Source: Escherichia coli
GTDB taxonomy: Bacteria > Pseudomonadota > Gammaproteobacteria > Enterobacterales > Enterobacteriaceae
DNA length: 33,803 bases
Reading direction: 5' to 3' (one strand)
NCBI RefSeq assembly: GCF_003334335.1
Contig: NZ_QOWQ01000045.1
In this document: positions 1 through 3,000 of the stretch, in pieces
Layout of the letters: each line of letters starts with the position of its first letter
Position numbering within the stretch: position 1 is the first letter of the stretch
Position numbers: made by a program

Positions 1-3000
1 AACAGTGCTGCCCGCCCGCTGACGATGTCAGAGATGGTGGTGATGTTCGGTTATGTCTACCGCCAGTCGAGACCCTGTCGCCTTGCCAGTGAAATGGGTA
101 TCCACACGAAGACGGTGAATACCTTTCTGTATACGGGAATGGCGAAAAACGGGCTGTATGGTGTGAGCGTCAGACGGCTTGTTGGTGCCTGATGGCGGTC
201 CTGCCGGATGCGCAGAATCTTCTGATAGTTCAGAAGGTGCAGATGATGAATAAAGAGAGATGCCGGACAATCGGAAGAAAACGTTACACCACAGGCGCAA
301 TGTGCTTCATGCTGTTTGTGTGGCTTGGTGGTGTGCTGGCTCTTGTTGCTACAGCTGCGGTGGTAATGCAGTAAAAAAAGGGGGAGCAACATGCTCCCCG
401 ACCAGAAGAAAGACGTTTGATAACAATTAGTGAGTTGTTACGTCTTGTCCAGAATATCATAGCAACACTCTGTTGCAGTGATACCGATCGCGATTTTAGC
501 GAATTCCATCATAAATCCCCTGATTTTTAAGCCTGAAGCAGTCAAAGGAATTTCTATGCCCTATATCGATATCACCACGATGCGTGGGATGATGCCGCGC
601 GTTGTGACATCCATGCTGCCCGAGCATTCCGCTGTACTGGCGGAGGACTGCCATTTCCGGTTTGGTGTTATTACACCAGAACGTCAGATATCCGGGGTTG
701 AGAAAACATTCACAATTAAGCCAAAAACAATTTTTCATTACCGTGACGATTTCTGGTTTGCATGGCCGGATGTGGTGGATGTGATCCGCAGTCCGATCGC
801 TCAGGACCCCCACGGGCGTATTTACTACACTGACGGGCGTTTTCCTAAAGTGACGGATGCGACCATTGCCACAAAAGGGGACGGGAATCACCCGACATCA
901 TCGTATCGTCTTGGGATCCCCGCGCCGACGACAGCTCCTGTCTGTACTGTCCAGCAGGGCGGTGATGTTTCTGACGATAACCCGAATGATGATGAAACCC
1001 GGTTTTATACGGAAACCTTTGTCTCAGATTATGGTGAAGAAGGTCCGCCAGGTCCGGCGTCTCTGGAGGTAACACTCCGTACTCCGGGAACTGCGGTACA
1101 ACTGACGCTGGCTCCGGTGCCATTGCAGAATGCCAGTATTAAACGTCGTCGTATTTATCGTTCTGCATCAGGTGGAGGGGAGGCGGATTTTTTACTTGTG
1201 GCTGAACTGGATGCATCCGTGCTCAGTTACACGGACAAAATACCGGCGAAAAACCTTGGACCTTCGCTGGCGACATGGGATTACCTGCCGCCGCCAGAGA
1301 ATATGACAGGCCTTTGCCTGATGGCTAACGGTATTGCCGCCGGGTTTGCCGGTAATGAAGTGATGTTTTCGGAAGCGTATCTGCCGTATGCATGGCCGGA
1401 AGTGAATCGTCACACGACGGCAGAAGATATTGTGGCTATCTGTCCGCTCGGAACATCACTGGTGGTGGCGACAAAGGGTGAGCCTTATCTGTTCAGTGGT
1501 GTATCGCCTTCCACAATTTCTGGCTCCAGAATTCCTTCAATGCAGGCGTGTCTGAGCAGGCGGAGTATGGTCGCGATGGAGGGCTTTGTGCTGTATGCAG
1601 GAACAAATGGCCTGGTGTCTGTTGATGCAAACGGTAATGCCGCTCTGGCGACGGAGCAGATTATTTCGCCGGAACAGTGGCAGAGTCAGTTTAATCCGGC
1701 CTCCATTGTGGCTTATACCTGGCGTGGTGAATACATTGCCTGTTACACGAAACCGGATGGTAAGCAGGATGTGTTTGTCTTCAACCCGGCAGGTATGGAT
1801 ATCCGCTACCTCAGTACACCTTTTGACTGCGCATGTGTTGACCTGGTTAACGATGTTATGCGGGTGGTATCAGGACAAAACATGTCTGCGATCGCCGGAG
1901 GGAGTTTGCCGTCGACAATCAGATGGCATTCAAAGGTATTTTCCCTTCTGGAAAGAACCTCTTTCTCCTGTCTCAGGGTGAAGTCTCCGACGCCAGAGCG
2001 GGTGGGAATTACTGTGCTGGCAGATGATGTTCCGGTGATTCACCTTGCACCTGGAAGCTTTTCGGGAAGCGTTGTGAGATTACCTGCTGCAACCGGGCAA
2101 AACTGGCAGATACTGGTTTCCGGTTTTGGTCAGGTTGAACGTATTACACTCAGTACATCGATGTCGGAGCTGCCGGTATGACAAAAAAACCGTGGCGCGC
2201 AGGAAAGGATTTATCTGCGGTTGTGGAAAATATGGAGATAGGGACAGGACAACGTGGCGATGGTCGTCATGCTTTTGTAACCCGTGAAGAACTGGTCGGT
2301 CTGAAGCTGGCCCGTCGCCGGACTTCAGGTGGTGCCGCATATGCCCTTAATCCGGGGATTGAGATGGACAGCTCTGTAATGGTCGTTGATTTCCCATCGA
2401 AACCTCAGAATTTTAAGGCGACAGGGGGATTTGGCTCGGTACTGCTTGAATGGGATATGCCGAATTATCGCGGTCATTCACTGACTGAAATCTGGCGGGG
2501 TACGGAGGATGACCTTTCGGATGCGGTGCTGGTTGCCACGACGCCGGGGCAGGTTTACGGTGATCCGGTTGATCCGGGCTGGTCGGGATTCTACTGGATA
2601 CGCTTTGTTAATGCAGCGGGAGTGAAAGGGCCATGGAACGCGGTAAAAGGCACTCCCGCACAAACCCAGATAAGCGTTCAGGCCATTATTGACCAGATCA
2701 AGGAGGAGGCTGCAAAGTCACCGGTGGTGGAAGAGCTGCGTAAGGAAATAAAGAATGCTCAGGGGCAGGCAGTAAAGGACGCGGCAATCGAGACGACGGA
2801 AGTTGTGGGTAATCTCAGGGAAGAAACACTGAAAACTATCGGTGGTATTGATACCCGTGTTACGGGGATGAATAAGTCAACCAGTGAAGAGCTTAATAAG
2901 GTAAATGAGCGCATCACTAAGGTGGATAAAGAAGGCGGTGAAGCTTTCCTGGCCATGTGGTCAAAAAAGACCGGTGTTGAGGGAATTACTGCGGGGATCG

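Follow-up and report, generated by a model that had tools for sequence, protein, structure and literature searches.

A terminator hairpin beside the cargo slot of a 933W/Sp5-type Escherichia coli prophage very probably ends an unnamed Hfq-associated small RNA gene

Lambda OOP and P22 sar are short, terminator-ended RNAs that run against a phage operon and are fully complementary to the operon message, and both overlap the coding region or the ribosome-binding site (RBS) of a defined target. Strong association with Hfq is more typical of trans-acting small RNAs (sRNAs). The EcOnc sRNAs of enterohaemorrhagic E. coli (EHEC), which include AsxR/AgvB (EcOnc02/01) and HnrS, are prophage-encoded, Hfq-bound and expressed in lysogens; many have intrinsic terminators and lie beside cargo (‘moron’) slots, and related copies combine a conserved 3′ part with a variable part (Tree et al. 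2014; Poudyal et al. 2025 preprint). PasB, from prophage PP6 of enteropathogenic E. coli (EPEC) E2348/69, is an Hfq-dependent RNA of about 80 nt (NC_011601, 1466343 to 1466261, minus strand, 83 nt) that lies opposite the tail genes of a lambdoid prophage, in the intergenic gap that separates the tail assembly protein from gpJ within the tail cluster, and ends in a hairpin followed by U7 (Pearl Mizrahi et al. 2021, PMC8550237). Here we describe a terminator hairpin, and the RNA gene that it very probably ends, in a 33,803-nt stretch of E. coli DNA (assembly GCF_003334335.1, contig NZ_QOWQ01000045.1; hereafter the window) that carries a short-tailed lambdoid prophage of the 933W/Sp5 type (Sepvirinae).

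The hairpin, at 381-399, lies in an intergenic region with an orf-60 family gene to its left and a homologue of L0124/ECs1232 to its right. Together with the U7 tract that follows it on the minus strand, it is in all likelihood the terminator of a minus-strand sRNA gene located between the cargo slot and the L0124/ECs1232 homologue. The RNA is very probably an unnamed, Hfq-associated prophage sRNA of about 100-140 nt, conserved throughout phages of the 933W/Sp5 family. As a terminator, the hairpin is ordinary; the novelty is the overlooked RNA gene, which is of an established sRNA type. PasB is the closest analogue in layout and in the expected mode of Hfq binding, yet it has another sequence, belongs to a long-tailed lambda-like phage, has other neighbours and is common in strains that do not carry Shiga toxin (Stx). 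Compared with the EcOnc sRNAs, in which the 5′ 14-18 nt vary, it is the middle of the RNA that is variable here, and the genomic places differ. As for OOP and sar, a corresponding overlap of the window RNA with the RBS of the L0124 homologue (about 541-555) hinges on the inferred start site.

On the plus strand, positions 372-400 read TAA AAAAA G GGGGAGCA ACA TGCTCCCC G, with the A7 run at 373-379 overlapping the TAA stop (372-374) of a convergent plus-strand open reading frame (ORF). In the minus-strand RNA, the order is GGGGAGCA-UGU-UGCUCCCC-C-UUUUUUU, that is, a single C separates the stem from U7. The elements at the RNA's 3′ end are as follows:
373-379, minus strand, U7 tract (A7 on the plus strand), from direct reading and a consensus terminator scan
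381-399, minus strand, terminator stem-loop with arms 381-388 and 392-399 and loop 389-391, from reading, scan and folding
400-421, minus strand, U-rich stretch AUCAAACGUCUUUCUUCUGGUC directly 5′ of the stem, 9/22 U here

A preliminary description of this stretch had reported an 8-bp GC stem with a 7-A run, the U-tract following it on the minus strand only, and this proves exact to the base. The stem consists of eight perfect pairs, six of them G-C, closed by a 3-nt loop and trailed by CTTTTTTTAC in the minus-strand call of the consensus scan, in which it is the top terminator-like site of the first 5 kb. Folded as minus-strand RNA it reaches -14.8 kcal/mol, and as plus-strand RNA -15.6 kcal/mol, and none of 200 shuffled sequences is as stable. 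A count over both strands of the whole window of hairpins that have 8 or more Watson-Crick pairs (6 or more of them G-C), 3-8 nt in the loop and no fewer than 6/8 T downstream yields only two (381-399 and 5714-5737), compared with a mean of 0.03 in 60 dinucleotide shuffles. In the minus-strand orientation, the site thus bears the two marks of an intrinsic terminator, a G-C-rich, short-loop stem (typically of about 5-14 bp) and a U-tract directly 3′ of it, and we read it as a genuine Rho-independent terminator acting on that strand. On the plus strand, the sequence 3′ of the stem is GACCAG (GACCAGAAG), in which a T-run is absent, so late transcription should read through. Additionally, the locus has the composition of an sRNA-type Hfq-binding 3′ module as defined in the literature cited in PMC4104026, namely a U-rich stretch that precedes a terminator hairpin, which in turn is trailed by about 6 or more U. 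The stretch at 400-421 probably forms part of this module, and the U7 at 373-379 is expected to be both the site of termination and release and the Hfq-bound 3′ tail.

Transcription that reaches the terminator is seen at the homologous Sakai locus only, in minus-strand reads from Hfq crosslinking and analysis of cDNAs (CRAC) and from RNase E crosslinking, ligation and sequencing of hybrids (CLASH). In the Sakai chromosome (NC_002695.2), the hairpin is found at 1287581-1287599 within prophage Sp5, ECs_1232 starts at 1287755 on the plus strand, and the Sp5 late genes are on the plus strand. The region ‘ECs1231...ECs1232’ ranks as the 27th most Hfq-crosslinked intergenic region of EHEC Sakai, with 81206, 6030, 70478, 146246 and 3140 reads under ‘sense’ in five samples and 0 under ‘anti-sense’ (Tree et al. 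2014, Supplementary Table 1B, PMC4104026). The ‘sense’ heading is unclear for intergenic features, and the strand was calibrated on known sRNAs of the same table. The ryhB, sroC, oxyS and AsxR regions have their reads under ‘sense’, and the regions of spf, ssrA, micA, cyaR and chiX, which we take to be plus-strand genes on the K-12 map, have theirs under ‘anti-sense’. In support of the strands, AsxR is marked ‘-’ in Table S2, and the CLASH coordinates descend for ryhB and sroC and ascend for micM. Since minus-strand sRNAs are listed under ‘sense’, ‘sense’ corresponds to the minus strand, and the Hfq-bound RNA therefore opposes the tail genes. Hfq binding in vivo is found for allele B, the Sakai form of the locus, and on one strand only; as plus-strand Hfq reads are completely lacking, the RNA is probably made in lysogens without dependence on late transcription.

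RNase E data place the same RNA more closely. In two CLASH chimeras, the half annotated ‘ECs1231-1 5UTR’ (5′ untranslated region, UTR) extends from 1287527 to 1287493 and from 1287526 to 1287503 (Waters et al. 2017, PMC5286369); an offset of 142 separates the old Sakai coordinates from the new. The longer half, AAATGCCTTGCATGACATTCTGATGATGACTAAAT, matches the minus strand of locus L009 at 7636-7670, 36-70 nt upstream of the stem, and is absent from the plus strand; the strand convention was checked on the mgrR half of the same chimera, which is likewise on the minus strand. The allele B counterpart of window 400-475 is the sequence recovered by CLASH, and it lies in the Hfq-CRAC region int_1209. 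An abundant, apparently discrete minus-strand RNA associated with Hfq and RNase E is thereby documented from a short intergenic region in Sp5. The preliminary description had proposed to look for antisense transcript ends at about 373; antisense-strand RNA is on record in the homologous Sp5 locus, immediately upstream of the hairpin. One of the chimeras spans the MgrR seed region. As a partner, MgrR is unsupported, as the duplex energies of both alleles are equalled by 29-32% of shuffles.

In all, 169 phage records and 351/5426 complete E. coli genomes contain the intergenic block, mostly in a single copy per genome. It exists in two alleles, A in this window, phage 86 and HUSEC2011, and B in 933W and Sakai, whose identity changes sharply along the region:
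281-372 (about 90-100 nt), left of the A-run, 57%
373-399, A-run and hairpin, 89%
400-475, minus strand, variable RNA body of alleles A/B, 76 nt right of the hairpin, 63%
476-555, minus strand, strongly conserved right part of the intergenic region, in which the gene that follows has its plus-strand leader and RBS, 98.8%
first 600 nt of L0124, 99.2%

The 16 stem bases are invariant across both alleles and all single-nucleotide polymorphism (SNP) variants, the sole change being the middle loop base (C/T on the plus strand). As the initial IMG/VR set was picked by exact stem match and is circular for stem invariance, retrieval was redone through the flank only, and the stem is intact in 36/36 IMG/VR loci retrieved by a right-flank 24-mer alone. 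The U-tract is kept in every variant as U7, U6, U5AUU or U3CU3AUU, and the 5′ flank of the stem on the minus strand is U-rich in both alleles despite their divergence (9/22 U in allele A, 12/22 U in allele B). Loss of the hairpin in related phages, which had been named as grounds for refutation, is not seen: all that were examined carry it. Relatives of the L0124 homologue beyond E. coli Sepvirinae show less than 40% identity, and an equivalent intergenic region is absent from them. Separately, the identical 19-nt stem-loop GGGGAGCAAYATGCTCCCC is found in five unrelated phage contexts (IMG/VR L017/L018, L020, L034, L035 and L044), the L035 copy having A7 before and T6 after the stem and resembling an ordinary bidirectional terminator. 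This recurrence appears to reflect convergence on a good terminator sequence, not homology.

At the other end of the RNA, the CLASH read begins at the equivalent of about window 470, which puts the transcription start there or further upstream. The stretch 476-555 should hold the RNA 5′ end, its promoter or both. A relaxed promoter scan gave weak, ambiguous candidates only. By eye, two sites could serve as the -10 element: TAAAAT at 498-493, which no variant changes, and TATGAT at 513-508, replaced by TATGGT in three variants.

The absence of a name can be traced to annotation. Entries in the CLASH and Hfq tables indicate that ECs1231 was a minus-strand ORF call, which is gone from current RefSeq; it was most likely a 58-codon ORF reading straight through the terminator. 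The RNA was logged as the ECs1231 5′UTR, which plausibly explains its absence from the EcOnc orphan-sRNA list. In Rfam, the locus has no match at E<=5 (window 1-2500) or at gathering score, RF02702 and RF02703 included, apart from a chance sucC hit elsewhere. Identity with the known prophage sRNAs was rejected in each case: AsxR and AgvB both lie near stx, with AsxR (and EcOnc27) 3′ of stx2B; HnrS corresponds to EcOnc10-12 in Sp9, Sp10 and Sp12; and PasB, the one sRNA in the literature described as embedded among phage structural genes, gives no blastn alignment to either allele (word size 7, E up to 10).

Other readings of the hairpin and its transcript have to be weighed against an sRNA gene. 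The minus-strand transcript might be a tiny mRNA for a peptide of 18-24 amino acids (MMEFAKIAIGIT...), in which case the hairpin would terminate a protein gene; we consider this unlikely. The frame in question is:
438-512, minus strand, mini-ORF of 24 codons, MMEFAKIAIGITATECCYDILDKT, with ATG at 512-510, from ORF reading; an AGGGGA Shine-Dalgarno (SD)-like motif stands 4 nt before ATGATG
Besides its SD-like motif, the frame is open in both alleles, with the first 12 residues shared, and Hfq binds mRNAs too. However, the shared N-terminus simply mirrors the 98.8% conserved DNA that doubles as the plus-strand leader, whereas the C-terminal halves are unrelated and of unequal length (allele B reads MMEFAKIAIGITETKCLA). 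In addition, the frame is cut short in one locus by a stop at codon 15, which falls in a predicted loop, and the SD-like motif is mutated in another, the peptide matches no family, neither its coordinates nor its sequence has an entry in the supplements of a Sakai ribosome profiling (RIBOseq) small-gene study, and a transcription start at about 486-501 would leave the start codon outside the RNA. The mini-ORF is thus probably not a functional product. It is similarly improbable that the hairpin is a pure insulator, blocking antisense transcription that comes from far downstream and would run on into the cargo and tail-fibre genes, with no dedicated RNA gene. Its orientation and its position at the edge of a variable cargo slot suit such a role, and neither the consensus nor the relaxed scan identified a promoter. 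Against it, minus-strand genes are absent for about 17 kb to the right, and the Hfq-bound RNA is both abundant and local, as its rank of 27 among intergenic regions attests. Elsewhere in the supplementary tables that accompany Tree et al. 2014, ECs1232 is listed in neither orientation. Moreover, an Hfq module of the sRNA type is made up by the U-rich stretch together with the hairpin and U-tail. Of the antisense-blocking terminator proposed in the preliminary description, the minus-strand terminator directed against the tail genes therefore stands, but blocking incoming transcription is probably not its main role.

A plus-strand role, in which the stem-loop forms in the late or cargo mRNA directly behind the orf-60 stop and acts as a 3′ stabiliser or processing site of the upstream message, strikes us as decidedly unlikely. 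The stem folds equally well on that strand (-15.6 kcal/mol) and always lies a few bases past the stop of an orf-60-type ORF, but the conserved A-run (a U-run on the minus strand) is needless for such a role, the hairpin, U-tract and RNA persist in 933W and Sakai though orf-60 is mostly deleted there, and plus-strand Hfq reads are zero. Such a function could nevertheless coexist with a terminator of an sRNA. The hairpin could also act at the DNA level, as a protein-binding inverted repeat or as a recombination boundary of a mosaic module, since it lies near the junction where the gene content to the left differs between phages; this we hold to be most improbable. The homology breakpoints are off the hairpin, with orf-156/orf-60 remnants extending to its left in 933W; the perfect G-C-rich stem, 3-nt loop and flanking T-run are a terminator signature; the same 19-mer is present in unrelated phages, once in what resembles a bidirectional terminator; and direct RNA evidence exists on the matching strand. 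The protein-binding inverted repeat, offered earlier as an alternative, accordingly finds no support.

Several observations weigh against the hairpin being the end of an sRNA gene in this window. The experimental RNA evidence comes from Sakai allele B, and the body of allele A in the window is only 63% identical to it. This position is missing from the EcOnc list in Tree et al. 2014, and the consensus scan found no minus-strand sigma-70 promoter. MgrR, the sole candidate target, is without pairing-energy support. Moreover, the minimum-energy folds of the RNA body differ between alleles A and B and its covariation is close to zero (a term of 0.11 kcal/mol over what are effectively two alleles, a few compensatory pairs being offset by uncompensated SNPs), and a conserved structure in the body is unsupported on these grounds.

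We propose the following sequence of events for the sRNA gene. RNA polymerase would start about 100-140 nt upstream of the terminator, near window 486-520, and transcription would end in the U-tract at 379-373, after which the stem, the U-tail and the preceding U-rich stretch would serve as an Hfq-binding 3′ module. The RNA would then act as an Hfq-dependent regulator in lysogens, and, as a side effect, the terminator would shield the upstream cargo and tail-fibre genes from minus-strand transcription. Allele A of the window is presumed to behave like Sakai allele B. The middle with 63% identity sits within phages that are otherwise 99% identical. It is conceivable, though rather doubtful, that the RNA regulates in an allele-specific manner, its ends being conserved and its 76-nt middle exchanged, and that it gates tail genes in cis or discriminates between related co-resident Stx phages; made in lysogens, it would pair perfectly with the late transcript immediately before an essential virion gene. 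By analogy with AsxR/AgvB, it could also act as an anti-sRNA sponge.

The setting of the locus is that of Stx phages. The first 1200 bases of the window are 100% identical to Escherichia phage PhiR5_2 and 99.8% identical to the P-EibD fragment, and the part that starts at about 341 has 94.9% identity to 933W, VT2-Sakai and many other Stx phages. The flanking protein genes are:
243-374, plus strand, orf-60 family small membrane-protein gene, 43 amino acids from the likely start Met18, matching phrog_9340 over its full length
556-2181, plus strand, L0124/ECs1232 homologue, with ATG at 556 and an AAGGA RBS, matching phrog_511 ‘internal virion protein’

ECs1232 is essential for Sp5 morphogenesis, and deletion mutants package DNA yet yield neither plaques nor lysogens (PMC5155283). 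The reading frame of orf-60 spans 192-374 on the plus strand, and its stop abuts the hairpin. The encoded protein has a basic N-terminus and a C-terminal hydrophobic helix, and gives no match in NCBIfam or PADLOC. In 933W and Sakai, orf-60 is mostly deleted (window 182-329 has no counterpart there, and a remnant lies at L009 7437-7575), with the hairpin kept; in HUSEC2011, an unannotated orf-60 homologue follows cor (L007 about 1440-1500; ...IFVWLGAVVTLCAVAAVMMQ*). A type I toxin-antitoxin pair formed with orf-60 was considered and rejected: the RNA extends at its 3′ end only to the orf-60 stop codon, the RNA is retained and abundant in 933W and Sakai despite the orf-60 deletion, and no toxin or defence family is matched.

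Gene content to the left of the hairpin varies: this window has eib-type cargo with orf-156 and orf-60, phage 86 and HUSEC2011 carry cor, and L0122/L0123 take the place in 933W. The nearby protein genes are on the plus strand, as are all coding genes for about 17 kb rightward. The earlier statement that all credible genes nearby are on the plus strand thus holds for protein genes, with an RNA gene, however, on the minus strand. Deposited phage records annotate short plus-strand ‘hypothetical proteins’ at window 417-530 and 260-430 and at L005 1428-1574, and some of the annotated short plus-strand ORFs cross the hairpin (phage 86 orf24, ST2-8624 gp63 and one PhiR5_2 coding sequence). These are probably ORF-caller artefacts over the RNA gene, because their frames and starts differ between alleles.

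Insertions have also hit the intergenic region. An IS66-family insertion sequence (IS) in L004 (PPwrbA_EC3734), at about 1668-3162 and equivalent to about window 498, parts the RNA body from the sequence upstream of it, and IS1203 in L006 (O157 Z903), at 1767-2980, lies just within the 5′ start of the L0124 homologue. PPwrbA_EC3734 was considered as a natural recombinant keeping the RNA module alone and was rejected, as it carries the IS66-family insertion and is silent on the module boundaries.

Elsewhere in the window, terminator-like hairpins surround lom (4452-5183) and the small genes that follow it, at 5206-5226 (plus), 5563-5586 (minus), 5714-5737 (both strands), 6064-6083 (plus) and 8780-8799 (plus), the palindrome at 5714-5737 having T-runs on both sides. 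Tree et al. 2014 (PMC4104026) list EcOnc53, a minus-strand Hfq peak that closely follows lom in Sp5; by coordinate arithmetic, it would map near window 5330-5380. Outside the tail region, two matches to Rfam sRNA-Xcc1 (RF02221) score above the gathering threshold on the minus strand, at 20672-20757 and 21206-21294 (73.4 and 69.1 bits), about 450 nt apart. Beyond the phage genes, two adjacent minus-strand ORFs have an equal length of 808 codons (21705-24131 and 24189-26615); they look like a paralogous pair of host genes, which suggests a prophage-host junction at about 17-21 kb.

Stx-converting phages are medically important, and their sRNAs, AsxR, AgvB, StxS and HnrS among them, have repeatedly been found to rewire host virulence and metabolism. 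The locus described here is among the thirty most Hfq-crosslinked intergenic regions of Sakai, yet it is without a name, an Rfam family or an annotation, because its RNA was recorded as the 5′UTR of a since-withdrawn ORF call. Read as the end of an RNA gene, the hairpin points to a concrete candidate regulator beside the cargo slot (eib, cor) of these phages.

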